Origin: a bacterium
GTDB taxonomy: Bacteria; Bacillota; Clostridia; TANB77; RGIG9151
Direction: 5' to 3'
DNA: 15,997 nucleotides
NCBI GenBank assembly: GCA_963635575.1
Contig: CAVHFU010000032.1
Location: 1 to 15,997 of the forward strand
Each line of letters begins with the position of its first letter. The first letter of the stretch is position 1. The notes under the pieces are model-generated. The model saw nothing but the letters and a program-made list of their open reading frames with translations. It was not told the origin of the DNA and made no database searches. This document shows positions 65 through 15,997 of the stretch, in pieces. Made by a program: the position numbers and the translations under genes.

Positions 65-1111
65 TTGAAAAAGAAAAAAGATGAAATAACCATCCGTTCC
101 AGCGCAGCGGAATACTTGACCTATGTCACCTCTATCGGCGATCAGCAGGACAGTATTGAAATGCGCTACGAGGATGAGAATATATGGCTGACTCAGAAGA
201 TGATGGCCACATTGTACGATGTTGGTTTGCCGACGATAAATGAACATATTAAAAAGATTTATGCAGATAGTGAATTAGAAGAGTCTGCAACTATTCGGAA
301 TTTCCGAATAGTTCAAACCGAAGGCTCACGTCAGGTGACTCGTGATACAAAGCATTATAATCTTCAAATGATTATCGCTGTCGGATTTAAAGTGAACAAT
401 GAGCGAGCAGTGCAATTCCGTAAGTGGGCCAATGGCATCGTGAAGGACTACACCATCAAAGGCTGGGTTATGGATGATGAGCGTCTGAAAAATGGTGGTT
501 CTGTGCTTACAGTAGAATACTTTGATCGTTTGTTGGAGCAGATTCGTGAAATCCGTCTGTCTGAGCGCAGATTCTATCAGAAGATAACGGATATCTATGC
601 TACAGCTCTTGATTATGATCGTACAGCAAAAACAACAAAGCAGTTTTTCACTAAGGTACAAAATAAAATGCACTTCGCAGTACACGGGCATACTGCAGCG
701 GAGTTGATTTACGAGCGAGCCGATGCAGATAAGCCACACATGGGATTAACCACTTGGGCATCAGCACCGGAAGGCAAGATTGTAAAAAGTGACGTAAGTA
801 TTGCGAAAAATTATCTGAGTGACCAGGAGATACGATCTTTGGAACGTATCGTATCCGCTTATCTGGATTTGGCAGAAGACCGCGCAGAACGTCATATTCC
901 AATGACAATGGAAGACTGGTCAAAGCGTCTGGATTTATTTCTGATGGCAGATGACCGTGAAGTGCTTCAGGATGCAGGTAAGATCACAGCAGAGATTGCA
1001 AAGGCAAAAGCTGAGACTGAATTTGAAAAATATCGTGTGGTTCAGGATAGATTGTTTATGTCGGATTTTGATAAGTACATGCTAGAGTTAGAAGAGAATG
1101 TAAAGAAATAA
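65..1111 (+). CDS. rhuM: RhuM-family protein, intact copy
   Basis: 348-aa ORF. TTG start lies 9 nt after GAGGAG (50-55). Conserved blocks (NIWLTQKMMATLYDV, YNLQMIIAVGFKVNNERAVQFRKWAN, SERRFYQKITDIYATALDYD) match the RhuM family as I remember it. Hand-counted GC is 23/60 and 29/60 for lines 61-120 and 121-180, against 12/60 for line 1501-1560 in the neighbouring gene. Confidence 0.8.
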   Translation: MKKKKDEITIRSSAAEYLTYVTSIGDQQDSIEMRYEDENIWLTQKMMATLYDVGLPTINEHIKKIYADSELEESATIRNFRIVQTEGSRQVTRDTKHYNLQMIIAVGFKVNNERAVQFRKWANGIVKDYTIKGWVMDDERLKNGGSVLTVEYFDRLLEQIREIRLSERRFYQKITDIYATALDYDRTAKTTKQFFTKVQNKMHFAVHGHTAAELIYERADADKPHMGLTTWASAPEGKIVKSDVSIAKNYLSDQEIRSLERIVSAYLDLAEDRAERHIPMTMEDWSKRLDLFLMADDREVLQDAGKITAEIAKAKAETEFEKYRVVQDRLFMSDFDKYMLELEENVKK

Positions 1112-1264
1112 TGTCGTTATTGCGAGTTGGGACGGTTACGTTGCTATGTCGTGAATAGTGCCTCAAAGCATTGTAAATAAAGGAATTTTGAATTTTTAAA
1201 AATCACTTAGTACAACAAAATGTCATTCGCGTTTCGAACCATATTTCCCAAAACCACAAAAAAC

Positions 1265-1293
1265 TTGAATTTGAGAAATAGAAATGGTATAAT
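1265..1293 (+). promoter_or_regulatory. sigma-A type promoter for the ATPase gene
   Basis: -35 TTGAAT (1265-1270), 17-nt spacer, extended -10 TGgTATAAT (1285-1293), about 40 nt upstream of the start codon. Confidence 0.6.
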
Positions 1294-1334
1294 ATGATAA
1301 AACACGGATAAAATAAATAGAGGTGAGTAATCAT

Positions 1335-2522
1335 ATGAAGATAATAGAACGAGATTATTTACAAAAGTTGATAAATGTAATAGGGACTCCAGATATAAAA
1401 GTAATAACTGGAGTTAGACGTAGTGGAAAATCAAAATTGCTAGAAATATTTGAAGATTATATAAGGGAAAATATTGAAGAACATAATATAATTAGTATAG
1501 ATTTTAATTTACTAGAATTTGAATATTTGCAGAATTATAAAGAATTGAATGCCTATATTGAAGGAAAATACAGAGAAGGCAAAAAGAATTTTATTTGTAT
1601 AGATGAAATACAAATGTGTGATAATTTTGAGAAAGCTATAAATAGTTTACATGCGACTGAAAAATACGATATTTATTTAACTGGTTCAAATGCTTTTTTG
1701 TTGAGTAGTGATTTAGCAACACTATTTACAGGAAGAACTTTTGAAGTCAAAATTTATCCTTTTTCATTTAAGGAATTTTTAAAATATTATGAATTTGAAG
1801 ATGTAGACTCAGCTTTTGATAAGTATGTATTAGAAGGTGGCTTATCAGGTTCTTATCTATATAAAACAGATGAAGATAAATATAACTATATTTCAGAAGT
1901 ATATAGAACGTTAATTGTGCGAGATATAATTAAGAGATATAAAATAAAAAATAAGGAATTATTAGATAATTTGAATGATTTTCTAATGGATAATATATCT
2001 AACATGACAACAGCAAGGAATATAACAAAAGAATTAAATTCTAACAGTACAGAAATTAATCATAAAACGATTGGCTCTTATATTAAATATTTATGCAATG
2101 CTTTTTTATATTACAATGTTAAGAGGTACGATATCCAAGGTAAAAAGTATTTAACAATGCAAGAAAAATATTATTTAGTAGATCAAGGATTTAAATATGC
2201 AAGGTTAGGAACAAAAAATATTAATTATGGAAGAATTTATGAAAATATTGTAGCAATAGAATTATTAAGACGTGGATATGAACTATATGTTGGGGTTTTA
2301 TATGGTAAAGAAGTAGATTTTGTGGCGATAAAGCAAAATGAAAAAATATATATTCAAGTGTCAGATAATATAAGCGATGAGAAAACTTTTAAAAGAGAAG
2401 TAGATTCACTATTAAAAATTAAAGACGCATATCCTAAAATGATTATAGCTAGAACAAAACATGATAAGTATCAATATGAAGGTATAGAAATTATAGATAT
2501 TGCGGAGTGGTTAGCTAATTAA
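1335..2522 (+). CDS. AAA-family ATPase with DUF4143-type C-terminal domain
   Basis: Walker A-like GVRRSGKSK and Walker B-like FICIDEIQ. Length and layout fit the AAA_14 + DUF4143 'ATP-binding protein' family. The ORF opens at GTG 1323, but ATG 1335 lies 9 nt after GAGGTG (1320-1325), so 1335 is preferred. Extremely AT-rich (about 20% GC in a sampled line). Confidence 0.8.
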   Translation: MKIIERDYLQKLINVIGTPDIKVITGVRRSGKSKLLEIFEDYIRENIEEHNIISIDFNLLEFEYLQNYKELNAYIEGKYREGKKNFICIDEIQMCDNFEKAINSLHATEKYDIYLTGSNAFLLSSDLATLFTGRTFEVKIYPFSFKEFLKYYEFEDVDSAFDKYVLEGGLSGSYLYKTDEDKYNYISEVYRTLIVRDIIKRYKIKNKELLDNLNDFLMDNISNMTTARNITKELNSNSTEINHKTIGSYIKYLCNAFLYYNVKRYDIQGKKYLTMQEKYYLVDQGFKYARLGTKNINYGRIYENIVAIELLRRGYELYVGVLYGKEVDFVAIKQNEKIYIQVSDNISDEKTFKREVDSLLKIKDAYPKMIIARTKHDKYQYEGIEIIDIAEWLAN

Positions 2523-4907: not shown

Positions 4908-5035
4908 TTTTCATTCCTCCTCACATATAAATAGTATTCATTCTTTTTGGATTTGTTTACATATTAGGCGGTGATTTCTGAAAAATGTATGCGTAAATAA
5001 TAAGGGTAATTTGTCGAAAGATAATTGTTTCTTTA

Positions 5036-5064
5036 TTGACTTTTTGTGATGGAAATTATAGAAT
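5036..5064 (+). promoter_or_regulatory. sigma-A type promoter of the rex-adhE-hyd operon
   Basis: -35 TTGACT (5036-5041), 17-nt spacer, -10 TAGAAT (5059-5064), about 40 nt upstream of the rex ATG. AGGAGG RBS at 5091-5096. Confidence 0.6.
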
Positions 5065-5103
5065 TATATCGATAATGGAATATCAATATGAGGAGGCGAG
5101 AAA

Positions 5104-5763
5104 ATGGACTGCGAGATTTATAAGTCTGTGCCTACTGCGACACTTTCAAGATTACCGATTTATTACAGATATCTAATTAAACTTCAAAAGTTTGGGGAAA
5201 AAAATATATCGTCGGCTAAAATTTCGTCCGATATGAATTTAAGTGCCGTTCAGGTAAGAAAAGACCTCGCTTGTGTGAGCAGTATTGCAGGTAGACCCAA
5301 AACTGGCTTTGATGTCGATGAGCTAATTAAAGATATTGCCTTATTTTTAGGGTATGACAATACAACAGACGCAATAATAGTTGGGGTAGGGCAACTTGGG
5401 AGAACCTTATTATCTTATGCGGGATTTGAGAATTATGGATTAAATATTGTTGCAGGGTTTGATGTGAATGAAAAAATTATTGGTAGCAAGGTAAATGGCA
5501 AGCTTATAATGCCTATTGAAAAATTAAAGAATTTTGCTGAGCGTATAAATGCACATATTGGCATAATTACTGTTCCATATCAAGAAGCACAAAAAGTTTG
5601 TGACGTGTTGGTTGAGGCTGGAATAAAGGCAATTTGGAATTTTGCACCTACACATATTTATGTGCCGGAGGGGGTAGTAATAAAAGATGAAGATATTGCC
5701 TCGTCGTTAGCTATATTATCCGGGCAACTAAAAGATTTATATAAAGGAGAGAGAGTATTATGA
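5104..5763 (+). CDS. rex: Redox-sensing transcriptional repressor Rex (NADH/NAD+ sensor)
   Basis: 219 aa. N-terminal winged-helix LSRLPIYYRYL...VRKDL, Rossmann motif GVGQLGRTL, and C-terminal WNFAP block, all typical of Rex. Confidence 0.9.
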   Translation: MDCEIYKSVPTATLSRLPIYYRYLIKLQKFGEKNISSAKISSDMNLSAVQVRKDLACVSSIAGRPKTGFDVDELIKDIALFLGYDNTTDAIIVGVGQLGRTLLSYAGFENYGLNIVAGFDVNEKIIGSKVNGKLIMPIEKLKNFAERINAHIGIITVPYQEAQKVCDVLVEAGIKAIWNFAPTHIYVPEGVVIKDEDIASSLAILSGQLKDLYKGERVL

Positions 5764-8339
5764 GAGATGTTAATGAAATGGTAAATGAGTTAGCAGTCAA
5801 GGCTGAAAAAGCTCTTAGAGAGTATATGCTCCTTGACCAAAAACAAGTCGACAAGATAGTTAATGCGATGGCATTAGCGGGACTTGACCATCATATGGAA
5901 CTAGCCAGAATGGCTGCCGAGGAGACCAATAGAGGTGTGTATGAAGACAAGGTTATTAAAAATATTTTCGCTACTGAATATATATGGCATTCGATAAAAG
6001 ATGAAAAAACAGTAGGAACTATTGAAGAAAATGAACTTGAAGGGTATGTTGAAGTGGCAGAGCCAATAGGAATTGTTGCCGGAGTTACACCGGTTACAAA
6101 CCCAACTTCTACAACAATGTTTAAATCATTAATTTGTGCAAAGGCTAGAAACCCTATTATATTTGGATTTCATCCGTCTGCTCAACAATGTTCAAAAAGA
6201 GCTGCTGAAATCTTAAGAGAAGCTGCTGTTAAGGCGGGAGCTCCTGAGGATTGTATTCAATGGATAGAAGAACCATCTATTGAAGCGACTACTGCTCTTA
6301 TGAATCATCCAAGTGTTTCTCTTATTTTGGCAACAGGTGGTGCCGGAATGGTTAAATCTGCGTATAGCTGCGGAAAACCTGCTTTAGGTGTTGGACCTGG
6401 TAATGCACCTTGCTATATTGAAACTACTGCAAAGCTAAAGAGAGCTTGTACAGACTTAATGCTTTCTAAAACTTTTGATAATGGTATGATCTGTGCGTCC
6501 GAACAGGCTGTCGTTGTTGATAGGGTTGTTCAATCAGCCTTTGAAGAGTATATGAAGGCGAATAATTGTTATTTCTTAAATGATGATGAAATCAGACAAC
6601 TTACGGAATTTATGATGCCTGAGGGTAAACTTAATTCTAAAGTTGTTGGTATGCCGGCTAGTGTTATTGCAGAAATGGCGGGAATAAATGTAGATAGCAA
6701 AACTAAGATTTTAATAGCTAAGCTTGACGGGGTTGGACCTGAATATCCGCTTTCAAAAGAAAAGTTATCTCCTGTTTTGGCGTACTACGTAGTAGACGGA
6801 TATGAAGAAGGTTTTGATGTTTGTAAGAGAATCTTAGATTTTGGCGGACTTGGACATTCAGCTATTATTCACAGCAATAATGAAGGGATTATTAAGAAGT
6901 TTGGCGAAGCGATGAAGGTTGGAAGAATAATTGTTAATTCACCTTCTTCACAAGGTGCAATTGGCGATATTTATAATACAAATACTCCGTCACTTACTTT
7001 AGGATGCGGTTCTTATGGACATAACAGTACGACCTCTAATGTATCTACCGTGAATCTTATAAATAAAAAGAAAATAGCAGAAAGAAGGGTTAATATGCAA
7101 TGGTTTAAAATTCCACCGAAGATTTATTTTGAAAAAGATTCAATTCAATATTTAGAGAACATGGAAGGTATTTCTAGAGCATTTATTGTTACTGACCCAA
7201 TGATGGTAAAACTCGGGTATGTTGATAAGGCATTATATTATCTAAGAAAAAGAGAGCAATATTGTCACTCAAAGATTTACTCAGACGTTGAGCCTGATCC
7301 GGATGTAGATACAATTATGCGCGGCGTAGCAGAAATGCGTGACTTTAAGCCGGATGTTATCATTGCTATTGGCGGTGGTTCTGCAATTGACGCAGCTAAG
7401 GGTATGTGGCTATTTTATGAGCATCCTGATGCTACTTTTGATGGACTTAAACAAAAGTTTATGGATATAAGAAAAAGAGTTGTTAAATTCCCTAATTTAG
7501 GACAATTAGCAAAATTTGTTGCTGTGCCTACAACAAGTGGAACAGGTAGTGAAGTTACAGCGTTTGCAGTTATTACAGATAGGAAGAATGGAAATATTAA
7601 ATATCCTTTGGCGGATTATGCATTAAAACCGGATGTTGCAATTATTGACCCACAATTTGTAATGAGTCTACCAAAATCTTCAACAGCAGATACCGGTATG
7701 GACGTTTTAACACACGCACTAGAAGCATATGTTTCTAATATGGCTAGTGATTATACTGATGGTCTTGCACTTCAAGCTATGGACTTAGTATTTGACTACT
7801 TGAAACGTGCTTATGACCATGGTGAGGAAGATGAGAAAGCAAGAGAGAAAATGCATAATGCAAGTTGTATTGCCGGAATGGCATTTACTAATGCTTTCTT
7901 GGGATTAAACCACAGTATGGCTCATAAATTAGGAGGGGAGTACCACATTCCTCATGGTAGAGCGAATGCAGTATTGCTTCCGTATGTTATAAAATACAAC
8001 GCAACAAAACCTACAAAATTTGCTACATTCCCTAAATACGAATACTTTGTTGCAGATGAGAAGTATGCGAAAGCCGCAAGATTTATCGGACTTGCAGGAA
8101 ATACAACAGAAGAAAGTGTAGATAACCTAATTAAGGCTATAAGACAATTAATGAGAGATTTAAATATGCCGATGTCTATTCGTGAATGTGGTGTAGATGA
8201 AGACGTATTTATGTCGGGATTAAGAAAATTAGCTGAAAATGCTCACGACGACCAATGCACAGGTGCAAATCCAAGATATCCTCTTGTTGAAGAAATTATG
8301 GAGCTTTATAAACAAGCTTATTACGGAGAGGAAAATTAG
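5760..8339 (+). CDS. adhE: Bifunctional acetaldehyde-CoA / alcohol dehydrogenase
   Basis: 859 aa. The N-terminal ALDH domain has the catalytic-Cys block [11 protein letters not shown]. The C-terminal Fe-ADH domain has [10 protein letters not shown] and [18 protein letters not shown]. The ATG overlaps the rex stop (ATGA, 5760-5763). A GGAGAGAGAG SD lies upstream. Confidence 0.97.
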
Positions 8340-8355
8340 AAAGGAGAATATAGTT

Positions 8356-8604
8356 ATGGTATTGAAGGTTTGCGTAGGAAGTTCATGTCACTTAAAAGGT
8401 TCTTATGATGTTATTGAGAAATTTAAAGAACTGTTAAAAAAATATGAAGTAGAAGATGTAATAGAGTTACAAGCAAGTTTCTGTCTTGGACATTGCTCAG
8501 AGGGCGTTACTGTTAAGGCTGACGAGAGATTTATATTAAATGTTAATGCTGACAATGCAGAGGAGATTTTTATAAATGAAATTTTGCCGTCTGTAAACGG
8601 TTAG
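8356..8604 (+). CDS. Small thioredoxin-like [2Fe-2S] ferredoxin (NuoE/HydC-like fold)
   Basis: 82 aa counted from ATG 8356, which lies 9 nt after AAGGAG (8341-8346). Cys pattern is Cx4Cx31Cx3C (CVGSSC ... CLGHC). The tracked ORF start at 8239 lies inside adhE and has no SD. Confidence 0.8.
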   Translation: MVLKVCVGSSCHLKGSYDVIEKFKELLKKYEVEDVIELQASFCLGHCSEGVTVKADERFILNVNADNAEEIFINEILPSVNG

Positions 8605-8617
8605 GAGTGAGAGCTTT

Positions 8618-10324
8618 ATGGAGGAATATTTAGAATTTAAAAATGCAAAATGTAAAGACTGTTATAAATGCCTAAGAGAATGCCCCGTAAAAGCTATAAA
8701 AGTTGTGGATCACCAAGCTAAAATTATAAAGGAAAGATGTATTTTGTGTGGCAAATGCACTAAGGTTTGCCCACAAAATGCAAAACGAGTACACAGTTCT
8801 AAAGACGAAGTGCTAGAGTTAATAAGGAATAATAAAAAAGTTGTGGCAAGTATTGCACCTTCATTTGTTTCAAGTTTTAAAGTAAAAGATTTTTCTATTA
8901 TGAAAATTGCTTTATGTAAGCTTGGCTTTTTCGATGCAGAAGAGACTTCAATCGGAGCAAATGTAGTAGTCCAAGAATATGAAAAGCTTTTAAAAAGTGG
9001 AAAGTATAAGAACTTTATTACGTCTGCCTGTCCGGCTATAAATAGGATGATACAAATTTATTATCCTAAAGTATTACCTTATTTAGCTCCTGTTGATACT
9101 CCGGCTGTTGTACACGCTAAAATGATTAAAGAAGCGGATAGTGAAGCAAAAGTTGTTTTCATAGGACCTTGCATAGCAAAAAAGATGGAAGGTAAAGAAA
9201 GCAAGGTTATAGATGGTGTATTGACTTTTGAAGAACTTTTAGAGTTATTTAATGAAAATAACATTGATCTGTCAATGATTTCTGATGTGTCTGTTGATGA
9301 GGATAAGAAGATTACAAACAGAGCGAAGTATTTCCCTATTAGCAGAGGAATTATAAAGTCTTTTGCTACATTACCTGAGGGGTATGAGTATATAGCTATT
9401 GACGGAGTTGAACGTTGCTTTGAAGTATTAAATAGTATGGATGAGCTTTCCGGTATATTCTTAGAGATTAATAGTTGTGCGGGAGCTTGTATAAACGGGC
9501 CTTGTAGCTTGACAAAGGAAAAGGAATGTATAAACTCAAATGCTACAATAAGGAACTATGTAAAAAAAGAATTAGAAAACAGTATCGGAAATGAAAAGGT
9601 GCAATATGACTTAGATTTTACTAAAGAATACGATAGATTAAGGGCTGGTGATATTCCGGGAACAGATAAGCAAATCGAGGCTATACTAGCTAAGACCGGA
9701 AAACTAAAACCGGAAGATGAGCTAAACTGCGGTGTGTGTGGTTATTCTACTTGCCGTGCAAAAGCTTGGGCGGTACTAAATGGATATGCAGATATTGATA
9801 TGTGTCTTCCATATATGAGGAAGAAAGCGGAATCTATGTCATATGAAATTATTCAAAATAGTCCAAACGGAATTATAGTTGTAGATAATGAATTAAAAAT
9901 TGTGGATATAAATGCGAAGGCAATGGAACTTGGCGGTATGATAGGGTATGATGTTAAAGGTAAATATGTCGTTGATTACTTTGAGCCGACCGACTTTGTG
10001 TTTGCACTAAATGATGAAAAGAATGTTATAAGAAAGAAAATGTATATTCCAAAAACAAAATCTTATGTTGAACTTTCTGTTACCTATATGAAAGAGCATA
10101 AGACTATGTTTGCAATTATGAAGGATATTACAAGTGGTGTAAATTATAACGAGAAACTAAATAGTGTTAAGCAAGAAACTTTTAAAACCACAGATGAAGT
10201 TATAAACAAACAAATGAGAGTAGTTCAAGAAATTGCATCGTTACTTGGTGAAACTACGGCAGAGTCAAAAGTGGCATTGCTTAAGTTAAAGAAGACCTTG
10301 CAAGAGGAGGAGGAAGAAGAATGA
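8618..10324 (+). CDS. hydS: Sensory-type [FeFe]-hydrogenase-like protein (HydS/HfsB-like): 2x[4Fe-4S] ferredoxin domain, H-cluster domain, Cx2Cx4Cx16C motif, PAS domain
   Basis: N-terminus has CKDCYKCLRECP and CILCGKCTKVCP. H-domain motifs are TSACP (L1), GPCIAKKME (L2) and EINSCAGACING (L3). CGVCGYSTC-x16-C lies at 9728-9805. A PAS-like segment (NSPNGIIVVDNELKIVDINAKAMEL...) spans about 9833-10136. The C-terminus is a helical tail ending in EEEEEE. Confidence 0.85.
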   Translation: MEEYLEFKNAKCKDCYKCLRECPVKAIKVVDHQAKIIKERCILCGKCTKVCPQNAKRVHSSKDEVLELIRNNKKVVASIAPSFVSSFKVKDFSIMKIALCKLGFFDAEETSIGANVVVQEYEKLLKSGKYKNFITSACPAINRMIQIYYPKVLPYLAPVDTPAVVHAKMIKEADSEAKVVFIGPCIAKKMEGKESKVIDGVLTFEELLELFNENNIDLSMISDVSVDEDKKITNRAKYFPISRGIIKSFATLPEGYEYIAIDGVERCFEVLNSMDELSGIFLEINSCAGACINGPCSLTKEKECINSNATIRNYVKKELENSIGNEKVQYDLDFTKEYDRLRAGDIPGTDKQIEAILAKTGKLKPEDELNCGVCGYSTCRAKAWAVLNGYADIDMCLPYMRKKAESMSYEIIQNSPNGIIVVDNELKIVDINAKAMELGGMIGYDVKGKYVVDYFEPTDFVFALNDEKNVIRKKMYIPKTKSYVELSVTYMKEHKTMFAIMKDITSGVNYNEKLNSVKQETFKTTDEVINKQMRVVQEIASLLGETTAESKVALLKLKKTLQEEEEEE

Positions 10325-11481
10325 GCCTTTTTCTCGAATACGGATACACTTCTCTTAATAAAGTGGGAGAGGAATTGTGCGGGGATAATGTAGATATTGC
10401 AGTTAATGGAAAGTATACTACTTTGGTTTTAGCTGATGGTCTTGGAAGTGGGGTAAAGGCTAATATATTATCTACACTTACTTCTAAAATCTTATGTACA
10501 ATGATTTCTAATGATATAGACATTGAAGAATGTATTGAAACAATAATACAGTCATTGCCTGTTTGCAAAGTTAGAGGACTTGCATATTCCACATTTTCTG
10601 TTGTTCATATAGATAATGAAGGAAAAGGCTATTTAGTTGAATTTGATAATCCACAAGCGATTTATTTACACAATAATAAGGCTTTGGATTTTGAAAGAGA
10701 ACGACTTGATATTTTAGGAAAAGTTGTATATAAAACAGAAATTGAATTAGAGCCGTCCGATGTAATTGTGGTTATGTCGGATGGAACAGTTCATGCAGGA
10801 ATTGGAATGCTTCTTAATTTAGGATGGCAAAGGGCAGAAATTATGGAGTATTTAGAGAAAACAGTTACTCCAAAAATGTCTGCTAGGTGTATAGCTTGTT
10901 TACTTGCATCTGCTTGTAATGATTTATATCTTGATAAACCGGGCGATGACACTACTGTTGCAGCTGTTAGAATAAGAGAAAATTCTCAAATTAACATTAT
11001 GGTAGGCCCACCGGTAGATAAGTCTAGAGATAACGAGTATATAGGTGAATTTATGCATATGCAAGGTAAGCATATCGTATGCGGAGGTACAAGTTCTCAG
11101 ATTGTTGCAAGATATTTAGGCGAAGAGCTTCATACAAGCTTAGACTTTTCAGATAAAGAAATTCCGCCTATTGCATTTATAAAAGGAATTGATTTAGTAA
11201 CAGAAGGTGTCATTACAATTAGAAAGCTTCTTAGTATGTCTGAAAAATATTTAGATGTCAAAGATGTTACGCCTAAGTATTATGTAAAAAATGATGGGGC
11301 ATCTTTACTGGCAGAAGCCTTATTTGAAGATGCAACAAATGTTAATTTTTTTGTTGGACAAAGTGTAAACGTAGCACATCAGGGGTTACCTATTGATACG
11401 ACGATGAAGCTAAAACTAGTTGAGTCATTATCCGAGAACTTAAAGAAAATGGGCAAAGTTGTTACTGTTAAGTATTTTTAG
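10321..11481 (+). CDS. PP2C/SpoIIE-family serine phosphatase with an unassigned ~165-aa C-terminal domain
   Basis: 386 aa. Metal-ligand blocks CGDN, LADGLGSG, MSDG and GDDTT are typical of SpoIIE/RsbU-type PP2C. The ATG overlaps the hydS stop (ATGA, 10321-10324). GGAGGA lies 6 nt upstream. Confidence 0.85.
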   Translation: MSLFLEYGYTSLNKVGEELCGDNVDIAVNGKYTTLVLADGLGSGVKANILSTLTSKILCTMISNDIDIEECIETIIQSLPVCKVRGLAYSTFSVVHIDNEGKGYLVEFDNPQAIYLHNNKALDFERERLDILGKVVYKTEIELEPSDVIVVMSDGTVHAGIGMLLNLGWQRAEIMEYLEKTVTPKMSARCIACLLASACNDLYLDKPGDDTTVAAVRIRENSQINIMVGPPVDKSRDNEYIGEFMHMQGKHIVCGGTSSQIVARYLGEELHTSLDFSDKEIPPIAFIKGIDLVTEGVITIRKLLSMSEKYLDVKDVTPKYYVKNDGASLLAEALFEDATNVNFFVGQSVNVAHQGLPIDTTMKLKLVESLSENLKKMGKVVTVKYF

Positions 11482-11493
11482 GGGAGGTATATT

Positions 11494-12027
11494 ATGAGAG
11501 TTCTTATAGCATCAGATATTCATGGTTCCGAGTTCTTTATGAGGAAGTTAATGGAACGATATGCAAAAGAGAATGTTGAACAACTTATTTTGTTAGGAGA
11601 TTTATATTATCATGGCCCGAGAAATTCTTTGCCTGAAGGATATAACTCACAAAAGGTAGCGGACATCTTAAATAATATTTCGGACAAAATTTTATGTGTT
11701 AGAGGAAATTGCGATAGTGAGGTAGATGAGATGATTTCAAAGTTTCATTTTACTGAGAACTTGCAATTATATATAAACAATAAAAAAGTATTCCTCACAC
11801 ATGGTCATAAACTAGATGAGGAAAACTTGGTAAATGCTTATGACATCATTATCTATGGTCATTTGCATACCGGATTTATTAAAAAAGTGAAAAATACAAT
11901 AGTGGCTAATACAGGTTCGGTGTCACTACCTAAGAACAAAACAGCCAATAGCTACATAATTCTTGATGATAACAGAATAGAGTTGAAAGATTTAGCAGGA
12001 AATTTAATTGAAAGTGAGGATTTTTAG
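11494..12027 (+). CDS. yfcE: YfcE / MJ0936-family metallophosphoesterase (phosphodiesterase)
   Basis: 177 aa. Motifs SDIHGS, LLGDLYYHGPRNSLPEGY, VRGNCDSEVD, LTHGH, YGHLH and NTGSVSLPK are collinear with E. coli YfcE as I remember it. GGAGG lies 6 nt upstream of the ATG. Confidence 0.85.
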   Translation: MRVLIASDIHGSEFFMRKLMERYAKENVEQLILLGDLYYHGPRNSLPEGYNSQKVADILNNISDKILCVRGNCDSEVDEMISKFHFTENLQLYINNKKVFLTHGHKLDEENLVNAYDIIIYGHLHTGFIKKVKNTIVANTGSVSLPKNKTANSYIILDDNRIELKDLAGNLIESEDF

Positions 12028-12028
12028 G

Positions 12029-13462
12029 ATGAAAAAGTTTGATACAAAAGTTCAACATCTTAAATATAAAGTTTTAAGGGAGGTAATAAAAAAGGCAGAT
12101 GCAGACGATTTACAAAATGTCTATCGCGATGTGCCAAACATTGTAGTACCTGGTCCTAAGGCAAGTATGAGATGTTGTATATATAAAGAAAGAGCTATTG
12201 TTCAAGAAAGAATTAAAATGGCTCTTGGTGGAGACAAGGAAAATCCTAATGTTGTTGAAGTTATAGATATAGCATGTGATGAATGTCCAATTGAAGGAAT
12301 GTTGGTGACACAAGCATGCCGTGGATGTATAGTTAACAGATGTACAGAAGTATGTCCTAGGGGAGCTATTAGCATTATCAACAAGAAGGCTGTAATAGAC
12401 AAAGAAAAATGTGTAGAATGTGGCTTATGTACGAAAGCTTGCCCATATTCAGCTATTATTGCTCAAAAAAGACCTTGTGTAAATAGTTGCAAAGTTAAAG
12501 CCATTAGTATGGGAGAAGATAAAAAGGCTGTAATAGATAATGACAAGTGTATTTCTTGTGGTGCTTGTGTTTACCAATGCCCATTTGGCGCTATTGTGGA
12601 CAAGTCTTTAATTATGGAAGTATTAAAGATATTAAAGGATTCTGACAATAATAAGAACTACAATGTTTATGCGGTTATTGCTCCTTCAATTGTTAGCCAG
12701 TTTAAGTATGCAAAAATTGAACAAATCATTACCGGTATCAAGAAGTTAGGATTCCACCATGTAGTTGAAGCTGCATTGGGTGCAGACATTACTTTATATC
12801 ACGAATTAGGAGAGCTAAAAGAAAAAGGTGTTATGACCACATCTTGTTGTCCATCATTCGTTATGTTTATTGAGAAGAATTTCCCTGAATTAACTAAATA
12901 TATTTCAAGTTCTGTTTCTCCAATGGTTGAGACAGCTAAGCTGATTAAGAGATCTGATCCTACTGCAAAGGTTATTTTCATAGGACCTTGTTCTAGCAAA
13001 AAACGTGAGTATAAGTTGCCTAAGACTGGAGGAGCTATTGATAGTGTTTTATCATTTGAGGAATTACAAGCGTTCTTTGATGCTAGGGAAATAGATATTG
13101 CATCATTAGAAGAATCCTCTTTAGATAATGCATCTTATTACGGAAGAATATTTGCAAAGTCAGGTGGTATTGCTAAGGGTGTACGTGAAATCGGAGAAAG
13201 TATGGGACTTGATGTAAAACCTGCAGTAATGAATGGAATTGATGAATGCAGAGCTAATTTATTAAGATTAAAAGCTAATAAAGCTGTTGAAAATTTCTTT
13301 GAAGGAATGGCTTGTGACGGTGGATGCTTAAATGGTGCGTTGTGCTTAAGCCATGGCCCTAAAAATGCAGCTGATGTAGATAAGTATGGTGAGGATGCTA
13401 AAGAAAAGAGCATAGATAATTCTGTAAGGTTATATGAAATGAGCCTTAAGAAATCTGAATAG
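12029..13462 (+). CDS. hydA: Catalytic-type monomeric [FeFe]-hydrogenase with multi-[4Fe-4S] N-terminus (HydA2/HfsD-like, group B-like)
   Basis: Canonical H-cluster motifs TSCCPSF (12839-12853), GPCSSKKRE and EGMACDGGCLNG. N-terminal cluster motifs are CRGCIVNRCTEVCP, CVECGLCTKACP and CISCGACVYQCP. ATG 12029 lies 8 nt after GTGAGGA and 1 nt after the yfcE stop. It is preferred over the tracked TTG 12008, which lies inside yfcE. Confidence 0.9.
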   Translation: MKKFDTKVQHLKYKVLREVIKKADADDLQNVYRDVPNIVVPGPKASMRCCIYKERAIVQERIKMALGGDKENPNVVEVIDIACDECPIEGMLVTQACRGCIVNRCTEVCPRGAISIINKKAVIDKEKCVECGLCTKACPYSAIIAQKRPCVNSCKVKAISMGEDKKAVIDNDKCISCGACVYQCPFGAIVDKSLIMEVLKILKDSDNNKNYNVYAVIAPSIVSQFKYAKIEQIITGIKKLGFHHVVEAALGADITLYHELGELKEKGVMTTSCCPSFVMFIEKNFPELTKYISSSVSPMVETAKLIKRSDPTAKVIFIGPCSSKKREYKLPKTGGAIDSVLSFEELQAFFDAREIDIASLEESSLDNASYYGRIFAKSGGIAKGVREIGESMGLDVKPAVMNGIDECRANLLRLKANKAVENFFEGMACDGGCLNGALCLSHGPKNAADVDKYGEDAKEKSIDNSVRLYEMSLKKSE

Positions 13463-13497: not shown

Positions 13498-13525
13498 TTG
13501 ACAAAAATGGAATTATGTATATAAT
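13498..13525 (+). promoter_or_regulatory. Near-consensus sigma-A promoter for the orphan gene
   Basis: -35 TTGACA (13498-13503), 16-nt spacer, -10 TATAAT (13520-13525). Confidence 0.65.
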
Positions 13526-13589
13526 AGAAGATGTAAGTAAGGAATAAATGTTTAACCTATCCATTTTTTTGGAGGGAGGATGTAGTAAA

Positions 13590-14102
13590 ATGGAGACTGG
13601 TAAGAAGAGGTATCCAAATATTTTAATAGAAGGAGAAAATCGTATGAAGTATAATAATCCGGAGGCTTTGGAAAGAAAGTTAAGAGGCATCATTGAGAAA
13701 AGACGTGAAGATGAAGCAAAGGTTAAAGAAGTTCCACATGAGGTGATGTATGACAGGATGGTTCAGGAAGCTGTTCTAGTTATTACGAGCCAATGGGAAA
13801 CACAGTGCAAGTTTTATAGTATCGAGAGAGGTACTGAACTAGTAGCAAGGGCTTTTTTCGTTGTTGAAAATACACTTCACCTCTATAGTGATATTTTTGG
13901 GGTAATTAATCCTAAAACAGGAAAGAGTTGCTTTTATGAGGGATTTAAGTTTGAGTCTATGGACGAATTCTGGAAGTATGTAGAGGATGTTAAAAAGCAG
14001 CTTCCCGAACAAACGGGAGTTATGAAGAAAAGGAAGGAAAATACAACAGTATTTTCCGATGGGCCGGAGGTGCACGTATCCTTCACCTTTAAGATCGAAT
14101 AA
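13590..14102 (+). CDS. Hypothetical protein, no family recognised
   Basis: The ORF runs to the stop at 14100-14102. There are two plausible starts: ATG 13590, 9 nt after GGAGGGAGGA, and ATG 13644, 8 nt after AGGAG. The gene is bracketed by a consensus promoter and a strong terminator. Confidence 0.6.
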   Translation: METGKKRYPNILIEGENRMKYNNPEALERKLRGIIEKRREDEAKVKEVPHEVMYDRMVQEAVLVITSQWETQCKFYSIERGTELVARAFFVVENTLHLYSDIFGVINPKTGKSCFYEGFKFESMDEFWKYVEDVKKQLPEQTGVMKKRKENTTVFSDGPEVHVSFTFKIE

Positions 14103-14109
14103 AAACTTT

Positions 14110-14142
14110 ATACAGTTGGCGAAAGCCAACTGTATTTTTTTC
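14110..14142 (+). terminator. Rho-independent terminator
   Basis: 11-bp stem atacagttggc / gccaactgtat with a GAAA tetraloop, followed by a T7 run (14135-14141). Confidence 0.85.
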
Positions 14143-15652: not shown

Positions 15653-15685
15653 TTCCTTAGCAAGTAATAAGGAGATGATGTTTTG

Positions 15686-15997
15686 ATGAGCTGTGAAAAG
15701 TGCAGTAAATGTCAGATGTGCCAAAAATCTACGCATAGGACAGACGAGGAGAAAAAGCAACTTACCAAGAGATTGAACATAATAGAGGGGCAAATAAGAG
15801 GAATAAAGCAAATGATTGAAGATGACAGGTATTGTGCGGATATATTAATGCAATTATCAGCCATTGGGAAATCTTTAGAAGGTGTTGAAATGCAAATAAT
15901 GGAAAGCCATATATCAAATTGTGTCGCCTCCGAGATTAAAGCCGGAAATTCGGAAATAGTAAAAGAGGTAATGGAATTGTTTAGGAGATTAAGGTGA
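15686..15997 (+). CDS. csoR: CsoR-family (DUF156) metal-sensing transcriptional repressor, Cu(I)-type C-H-C signature, with Cys-rich N-terminal extension
   Basis: Core LTKRLNIIEGQIRGIKQMIEDDRYCADILMQLSAI...ESHISNC carries the Cys ... His-x3-Cys ligand pattern. The TGA stop falls exactly at 15995-15997. The start is ATG 15686, or TTG 15683, downstream of AAGGAG (15669-15674). Confidence 0.88.
   Translation: MSCEKCSKCQMCQKSTHRTDEEKKQLTKRLNIIEGQIRGIKQMIEDDRYCADILMQLSAIGKSLEGVEMQIMESHISNCVASEIKAGNSEIVKEVMELFRRLR

Follow-up and report, generated by a model that had tools for sequence, protein, structure and literature searches.

Is the [FeFe]-hydrogenase HydS, encoded at positions 8618-10324 of a 15,997-nt stretch of clostridial DNA (contig CAVHFU010000032.1; the whole stretch is called the window here), a working enzyme of fermentation or a sensor of it? 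The nearest genome match to the window is an uncultured Clostridia metagenome-assembled genome (MAG) from a Hadza gut sample, with 98% identity. An earlier reading, made from the sequence alone, had proposed that HydS can bind an H-cluster but is tuned for slow turnover or sensing, and our analysis supports this as far as sequence goes; it also agrees with what has been published on group C (M2f) enzymes (PMC8163306, PMC10055695). To judge by its domains and motifs, HydS is an ordinary, uncharacterised member of a described family of putative sensory hydrogenases, of the kind of Thermotoga maritima HydS (TmHydS), Ruminococcus albus HydS and Thermoanaerobacterium HfsB. Taking all lines together, it is probably a group C sensor of the C3 type, which would report H2 or redox status through a PP2C phosphatase to AdhE and a group B hydrogenase.

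The gene and its parts, as used below, are the following (AF2, AlphaFold2; pLDDT, predicted local distance difference test score):

8618-10324, forward strand: hydS/hfsB, putative sensory [FeFe]-hydrogenase of group C3, 568 aa (translation, motifs, Pfam and NCBIfam families, alignment to CpI, AF2 and Foldseek)
8651-8770, forward strand: two CxxCxxCxxxC [4Fe-4S] motifs at the HydS N-terminus, aa 12-22 and 41-51 (motif search, Fer4 families)
8834-9502, forward strand: HydS H-domain, aa 73-295 (PF02906 Fe_hyd_lg_C, E 1.2e-45)
9728-9805, forward strand: HydS C-terminal Cx2Cx4Cx16C, predicted fourth [4Fe-4S] site, aa 371-396 (exact motif CGVCGYSTCRAKAWAVLNGYADIDMC; PF04060)
9830-10138, forward strand: HydS PAS domain, aa about 405-507 (PF00989, TIGR00229, AF2)
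10145-10315, forward strand: HydS C-terminal helical hairpin, aa 510-566 (conservation; AF2 monomer model with two helices, 510-543 and 548-566, both of low pLDDT)

Group C, or M2f, enzymes are defined by two N-terminal [4Fe-4S] clusters, an H-domain, a Cx2Cx4Cx16C motif, a PAS domain and the loss of C299 and the proton-pathway residues (PMC8163306), and motif, domain and alignment searches found all five features in HydS. The N-terminal motifs read CKDCYKCLREC (aa 12-22) and CILCGKCTKVC (aa 41-51), give two Fer4 matches in Pfam, and have all eight cysteines invariant in alignment A1. The exact Cx2Cx4Cx16C motif, a type defined for M2e and M2f enzymes (PMC8163306), was recovered by our own motif search at 9728-9805, just where the sequence-only reading had placed it; it coincides with a match to the “Putative Fe-S cluster” family PF04060 (aa 369-398, 39.7 bits, E 3.8e-10), and its four cysteines are all invariant in a conservation set of 198 HydS relatives. 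The PAS-like domain that the same reading had put at about 9833-10136 agrees with the TIGR00229 PAS S-box match (aa 409-514, 30.9 bits against 22.9), while PF00989 lies just above its cutoff (24.2 against 22.6 bits, from aa 410) and AF2 predicts a five-strand PAS-like sheet with a pLDDT of about 72-84. The AF2 model of HydS as a whole has a mean pLDDT of 71, with most of the H-domain at 82-93 and a few 10-residue blocks lower; its best Foldseek matches are group A [FeFe]-hydrogenases (E about 1e-17), bearing out a hydrogenase fold for the H-domain, and by sequence and fold search of the PDB no solved group B or group C structure was found, the top matches all being group A.

Within group C, HydDB makes a split by the neighbouring regulator, and C3 is the “phosphatase-linked” type (PMC5037454). 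A Ser/Thr phosphatase gene is indeed encoded alongside, since a SpoIIE-type PP2C gene starting at 10321 overlaps the hydS stop. HydS stays below the NCBIfam cutoffs of both group B (TIGR04105, 188 against 450) and group A (TIGR02512, 80 against 406). A prototypical group A enzyme was rejected on the latter score and because HydS shows TSACP, GPC and EINSC instead of TSCCP, MPC and ExMxC. Group D (M2e, the TamHydS type) was excluded because HydS has a PAS domain and a Gly at M353; TamHydS shares with HydS the N-terminal clusters, the H-domain, the Cx2Cx4Cx16C motif, a non-conserved relay Cys and the status of a putative sensor, but group D enzymes have no PAS domain and carry Ser or Thr at M353 and Leu at M497, where HydS has Gly and Asn.

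The architecture given in the sequence-only reading for T. maritima HydS agrees with the published M2f definition (PMC8163306). Compared via its published description, TmHydS has the same order of domains as HydS of the window, namely two [4Fe-4S] motifs, H-domain, Cx2Cx4Cx16C and PAS; both carry Ala at C299 (A131 in TmHydS, A137 here) and Gly at M353 (G177 and G183; PMC10055695), and E279, E282 and S319 are conserved in neither. The two differ at M497, which is Ser267 in TmHydS but Asn in HydS, and at F417, which is Tyr223 in TmHydS but Phe in HydS; moreover, the host of TmHydS is a thermophile, whereas HydS comes from a mesophilic gut Clostridia MAG.

Whether HydS can hold an H-cluster, and what surrounds it, was read from a MAFFT alignment of Clostridium pasteurianum CpI, HydS, the downstream hydrogenase of the window (hydB) and 20 relatives, a sample of the 198. 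Residue numbers of the reference are those of CpI, whose sequence was verified against the PDB chains 1C4A and 4XDC (residues 1-574, one residue corrected). The downstream gene and the positions compared are these:

12029-13462, forward strand: hydB/hfsD-like monomeric [FeFe]-hydrogenase, predicted group B (TIGR04105, motifs, alignment to CpI)
CpI C299, proton relay: HydS A137, downstream enzyme C280
CpI C300, H-cluster ligand: HydS C138, downstream enzyme C281
CpI S319, proton pathway: HydS A157, downstream enzyme S300
CpI M353, frames the diiron site: HydS G183, downstream enzyme G326
CpI C355, H-cluster ligand: HydS C185, downstream enzyme C328
CpI K358, second sphere: HydS K188, downstream enzyme K331
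CpI M497, frames the diiron site: HydS N285, downstream enzyme M434
CpI C499, H-cluster ligand: HydS C287, downstream enzyme C436
CpI C503, H-cluster ligand: HydS C291, downstream enzyme C440

On this alignment HydS carries every residue that would be needed to hold the H-cluster, namely the four cysteines (C138, C185, C287 and C291, as the sequence-only reading had said), Lys358, Pro231 and Ser232. The four ligands are invariant in the 198 relatives, 195 of these also retain Lys358, and Pro231 and Ser232 are conserved in the 20-protein sample, a pattern that speaks for selection acting at the H-cluster site. As aligned, HydS at the same time lacks the group A proton relay and both of the methionines framing the diiron site. 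In all of the 120 closest database proteins (at least 59% identity to HydS), S319 is replaced by Ala, M353 by Gly and M497 by Asn; the segment with E279 and E282 of CpI falls into an alignment gap in both HydS and the downstream hydrogenase.

Side by side, the three H-domain motifs of the two hydrogenases bear out most, though not all, of what had been claimed for them. A direct BLASTP comparison (32% identity over 334 aa, E 3e-39) aligns all three without gaps. In L1, the contrast of ITSACP in HydS (aa 134-139, with A137 and C138) and TTSCCP in hydB (12836-12853) was confirmed; the span 9020-9034 given earlier for HydS covers TSACP, and the full ITSACP lies at 9017-9034. The proposed Ala at the relay position also held when the alignment that could have refuted it was made, A137 (9026-9028) falling opposite C299, an assignment made by motif-anchored sequence alignment. 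L2 is conserved in both, as claimed, with PCIAKKME in HydS (aa 184-191, 9167-9190, with C185 and K188, Gly183 standing just before) and PCSSKKRE in hydB (12986-13009), again after a Gly (GPCSSKKRE), and F-I-G-P-C is common to the two proteins. In L3, HydS has EINSCAGACING (aa 283-294, 9464-9499), which includes EINSCAGAC with N285, C287 and C291, and hydB has EGMACDGGCLNG (13301-13336), which includes EGMACDGGC; the Met had been said to be replaced directly before the first Cys, and the replacement is real, but Asn285 stands two residues before it (E-I-N-S-C). The statement that the downstream paralog retains the catalytic-type second sphere applies to C299, S319 and M497 and not to M353, because a Gly stands there in both proteins. 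HydS has an additional cysteine, C296 (9503-9505, in INGPC), five residues past the last of the H-cluster ligands; all 120 closest proteins share it, as do 63 of 78 loci, and in the downstream paralog a Cys stands at about the same distance (NGALC).

The downstream hydrogenase, called HydA in the sequence-only reading and taken there as a catalytic-type paralog, does keep the relay Cys; its sequence, however, places it in group B, not among the prototypical enzymes, with a TIGR04105 FeFe_hydrog_B1 score of 541.9 bits (cutoff 450). Like the group B enzyme CpIII (PMC12138974), it has a Phe/Gly pair at T351/M353 of CpI (F-I-G-P-C), and the relay Cys is retained in both; CpIII differs in having an extra Cys (TSCCCP) and Ala at S232, where hydB has TSCCP and keeps the Ser. 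Its start is most likely the ATG at 12029, right behind the yfcE stop, the mechanical ORF (open reading frame) start TTG at 12008 probably being too far upstream.

The genes around hydS lead from the H-cluster to the possible output. A string of seven genes on one strand (5104-13462), namely rex, adhE, hfsA, hydS, PP2C, yfcE and hydB, has junctions that overlap or leave 1-14 nt; the members besides the two hydrogenases are:

5104-5763, forward strand: rex, redox-sensing transcriptional repressor, first gene of the string (NF003994, 273 bits against 130; Pfam Put_DNA-bind_N and CoA_binding)
5760-8339, forward strand: adhE, bifunctional aldehyde/alcohol dehydrogenase (Pfam Aldedh, Fe-ADH and ADH_Fe_C)
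8356-8604, forward strand: hfsA-like small thioredoxin-like [2Fe-2S] protein, 82 aa (PF01257 2Fe-2S_thioredx, 32.9 bits against 24.8)
10321-11481, forward strand: hfsC-like SpoIIE/RsbU-type PP2C Ser/Thr phosphatase, 386 aa (PF07228; PDB sequence matches to SpoIIE and RsbX)
11494-12027, forward strand: yfcE, YfcE-family phosphodiesterase, between PP2C and hydB (NF006988, 192.9 bits against 117)

Comparison of 80 related loci, which come from Clostridia, Bacteroidales and further lineages (denominators are the loci with enough sequence), showed the phosphatase gene as the steadiest neighbour, adjoining hydS in 79 of 80, followed by the 2Fe-2S gene (73/79) and by a group B hydrogenase after the phosphatase (56/73). 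In 23 of 70 loci, both in Clostridia and in Bacteroidales, the hfsA-hydS pair has adhE directly upstream, and rex was found somewhere in the locus in 38 of 80. In contrast, yfcE occurs in five of the 80, all close relatives, and is thus a lineage-specific insertion.

This arrangement is known in parts. By gene order, the string matches the hfsABCD genes of Thermoanaerobacterium saccharolyticum and T. thermosaccharolyticum, which encode a small FeS protein, a PAS hydrogenase (HfsB), a Ser phosphatase and a ferredoxin-linked hydrogenase; in the window, rex and adhE are physically fused in front, and yfcE is inserted between phosphatase and hydrogenase. Deletion of hfsB raised the adhE transcript two- to three-fold and increased the ethanol yield (PMC5707799; PMC11837493). 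The window cluster also resembles that of R. albus 7, where the sensor HydS shares a transcript with adhE, a phosphatase and a ferredoxin-only hydrogenase, and the expression of the cluster falls 111-fold when an H2 consumer is grown alongside, i.e., at low H2 (PMC6776011). The catalytic partner in R. albus is classed there as a group A1 enzyme; here it is a group B enzyme. A Ser/Thr kinase is reported beside R. albus HydS (PMC5707799); the window has none.

From these relatives a route can be drawn. H2 would react at the H-cluster of HydS, with slow turnover and stabilised reduced states, as in characterised relatives, so that HydS would report H2 or redox status rather than carry flux. Its state would pass, again by analogy with relatives, via the C-terminal FeS, PAS and helix region to the adjacent SpoIIE-type PP2C, which may, through some phosphoprotein, set how much AdhE and group B hydrogenase are made or how active they are; when H2 is high, ethanol rather than H2 would then receive the electrons.

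Which part of HydS would speak to the phosphatase is suggested by its conservation. Column conservation in the 198 relatives is 0.91-0.96 over aa 521-560 (10178-10297), after the PAS domain, with the core KQMRVVQEIASLLGETTAESKV (KQMRVxQEIAxLLGETTAExKV), and this is the best-conserved segment of the family; the motif regions of the H-domain reach 0.7-0.85 and most of the PAS domain 0.5-0.65. The core is nearly unchanged even in loci whose HydS is only 36-40% identical overall. No Pfam family covers this helix, and its motif was not found in the literature searched, including the supplements on TamHydS and group D. A 55-aa helix query against 1.84 billion representative proteins gave 618 matches; in nearly all of the 150 listed the helix is C-terminal, and the majority resemble truncated pieces of HydS. 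One relative, P0247 (L082, 6001-7413), is a complete protein of 470 aa without a PAS domain, in which the Cx2Cx4Cx16C motif runs almost straight into the helix; its locus has a 2Fe-2S gene upstream, an overlapping SpoIIE PP2C gene downstream and no hydrogenase gene after it. The one protein with a different architecture, P0269 (L081, 78-626), has 182 aa, an N-terminal zinc-ribbon-like CxxC pair and the helix motif EKQMRVVQEIASLLGETVAETK at an internal position; it lies on a metagenome contig of 831 nt, its downstream gene is UppP-like and not a phosphatase, and it may be a genuine second context of the motif or an assembly artefact.

The phosphatase, whose start overlaps the hydS stop, is better conserved still than HydS. 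It has 386 aa in nearly all listed relatives and an identity of about 70% in those where HydS shows 56-62%. For its AF2 model (pLDDT 83), Foldseek gave a match to the phosphatase domain of SpoIIE (E 9.5e-14). Behind this domain follows a second alpha/beta domain, aa 223-386 (10987-11478), with a pLDDT of mostly 85-94 and the invariant motifs VCGGTSS, TEGV and VGQSVNVAHQGLPID; it has no Pfam match, and the Foldseek result of the whole model is dominated by the PP2C domain. The conservation of the helix, the PAS-less P0247 and the conservation of the phosphatase together suggest a coupling of the two, and we tentatively propose, as a possibility only, that the constant signalling element of phosphatase-linked sensors is the C-terminal hairpin (aa about 510-566) and not the PAS domain, serving to couple to or dock the SpoIIE-type PP2C. 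The C-terminal helix and the second domain of the phosphatase are the only parts of the system that go beyond the literature found.

Several points weigh against HydS as a sensor of this kind. Its placement in group C follows from architecture and motifs rather than from a reference phylogeny, and direct H2 sensing or phosphatase control by group C enzymes has not been demonstrated, so that the sensor interpretation draws on homology and gene context only. In the group D enzyme TamHydS, the C-terminal cluster kept its redox state under H2 (PMC13104023), and with regard to turnover, both TmHydS and TamHydS bind [2Fe]adt and catalyse H2 turnover (PMC8163306, PMC10055695), the activity of TmHydS lying far below that of prototypical enzymes (PMC10055695). 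The window encodes neither a kinase nor a STAS protein nor anything else that would be an obvious substrate of the phosphatase. Nor does the front of the string help: a promoter-like site lies upstream of rex (5036-5064), but the Rex operator forms TTGTTAANNNNTTAACAA and TTGTGAANNNNTTCACAA, searched with at most three mismatches, gave no site near the promoter region 4908-5103 and counts not above those of shuffled sequences, and no inverted repeat was found in that region, so that Rex control of the hydS operon cannot be claimed. Finally, the Ala at the relay position bears less than had been thought. It is present in HydS, as the sequence-only reading had said, but among the 120 closest proteins the position is Ala in 71 and Cys in 49, so Ala is dispensable for the function of the family, and the A131C variant of TmHydS lost 40% of its H2 oxidation and 20% of its H2 production, from which its authors infer an alternative proton path (PMC10055695). 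The causal weight on this residue has to be softened accordingly, Ala being neither diagnostic of nor causal for group C behaviour; in more distant loci, the position is Ser, Pro, Asp or Thr.

Two other explanations have to be set beside the sensor. HydS could belong, as a working part, to an Hfs hydrogenase of several proteins, in which HfsA, HfsB and HfsD would jointly carry electrons or turn over H2, with the PAS domain and the phosphatase only fine-tuning the complex. This is conceivable because TmHydS and TamHydS turn over H2, with measurable oxidation and evolution, and it would suit the co-linear, tightly packed genes, the N-terminal clusters, which resemble an ordinary electron-transfer relay (PMC8163306), and the lowered hydrogenase activity after deletion of the whole hfsABCD in T. 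saccharolyticum (PMC5707799). Deletion of hfsB only, however, raised hydrogenase activity and altered the expression of adhE, effects that the authors took as regulation (PMC5707799); the canonical proton pathway is absent from HydS and both framing methionines are replaced; and the constant partner across loci is the phosphatase (79/80) and not the group B hydrogenase (56/73), the PAS-less P0247 even keeping the phosphatase with no adjacent hydrogenase gene. We therefore give a subunit role a small chance.

The catalytic site could, on the other hand, have become idle altogether, HydS sensing cellular redox state, for example the ferredoxin pool or NADH via partners, by its Fe-S clusters and PAS domain, with an H-domain that is vestigial and without a functional [2Fe]. 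That the string opens with Rex, a sensor of NADH/NAD+, would fit, as would the suggestion by the T. thermosaccharolyticum authors that the PAS domain of HfsB possibly responds to redox potential (PMC11837493). The window also has no match to the HydE, HydF or HydG maturase families, the earlier statement to this effect holding for the scanned set of 15 ORFs (the 82-aa hfsA and 14 of 15 plausible ORFs with at least 100 aa; ORF 15683-15997 is cut by the window end), of which the 184-aa orf184 had no match of any kind; yet maturase genes commonly lie elsewhere in a genome, and the neighbouring HydB would need them anyway. A vestigial H-domain is hard to reconcile with H-cluster cysteines that are invariant in all 198 relatives, with Lys358 in 195 of them, with Pro231 and Ser232 in the 20-protein sample, and with the binding of [2Fe]adt and the reaction with H2 of TmHydS and TamHydS. 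As all H-cluster ligands are invariant, we regard this explanation as quite unlikely, and the C3-type sensor linked to the phosphatase is the one we prefer.

Some further features of the window concern the string and its borders. At the rex-adhE junction, stop and start overlap. For the hfsA-like gene, the ATG at 8356 behind the ribosome-binding site AAAGGAG is the most likely start, the ORF call at 8239, inside adhE, probably being too far upstream. Terminator-like sites inside the string amount to three weak stems of 5-6 bp, all within coding sequence and none at a gene boundary. Behind hydB, a perfect sigma-70-type promoter (TTGACA-16-TATAAT, 13498-13525) begins the next unit, ahead of the 184-aa ORF (13548-14102, no Pfam match), which is followed by a strong bidirectional terminator hairpin at 14110-14135. 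The left end of the window (65-2522) encodes a RhuM-family protein and an AAA_14/DUF4143 ATPase, unrelated to the hydrogenase cluster.

The full order rex-adhE-hfsA-hydS-PP2C-hydB was found in rumen and gut Bacteroidales (loci L032, L040-L045, L048, L060 and L078) and in MAGs labelled as Clostridia or Bacilli (L005, L051-L055 and L062). AdhE of the Bacteroidales is 76-77% identical to that of the window, HydS only about 56%, and this contrast may hint at a partial transfer of the cluster between phyla.

The group C literature already covers the architecture of HydS with its additional cluster motif and PAS domain, the Ala, Gly and non-Met substitutions, the neighbouring phosphatase and the link to adhE. 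The value of the finding is thus confirmatory, in that the rex-adhE-hfsA-hydS-PP2C-hydB arrangement occurs widely, in uncultured Clostridia of gut and rumen and in Bacteroidales, lineages whose group B hydrogenases are reported as the main source of gut H2 (PMC12578642). Concrete places in which to seek the signal path of HydS are the conserved C-terminal helix and the C-terminal domain of the phosphatase, and the wide occurrence of the arrangement in gut lineages supports the idea of H2-responsive switching between H2 and ethanol as a common circuit of gut fermenters.

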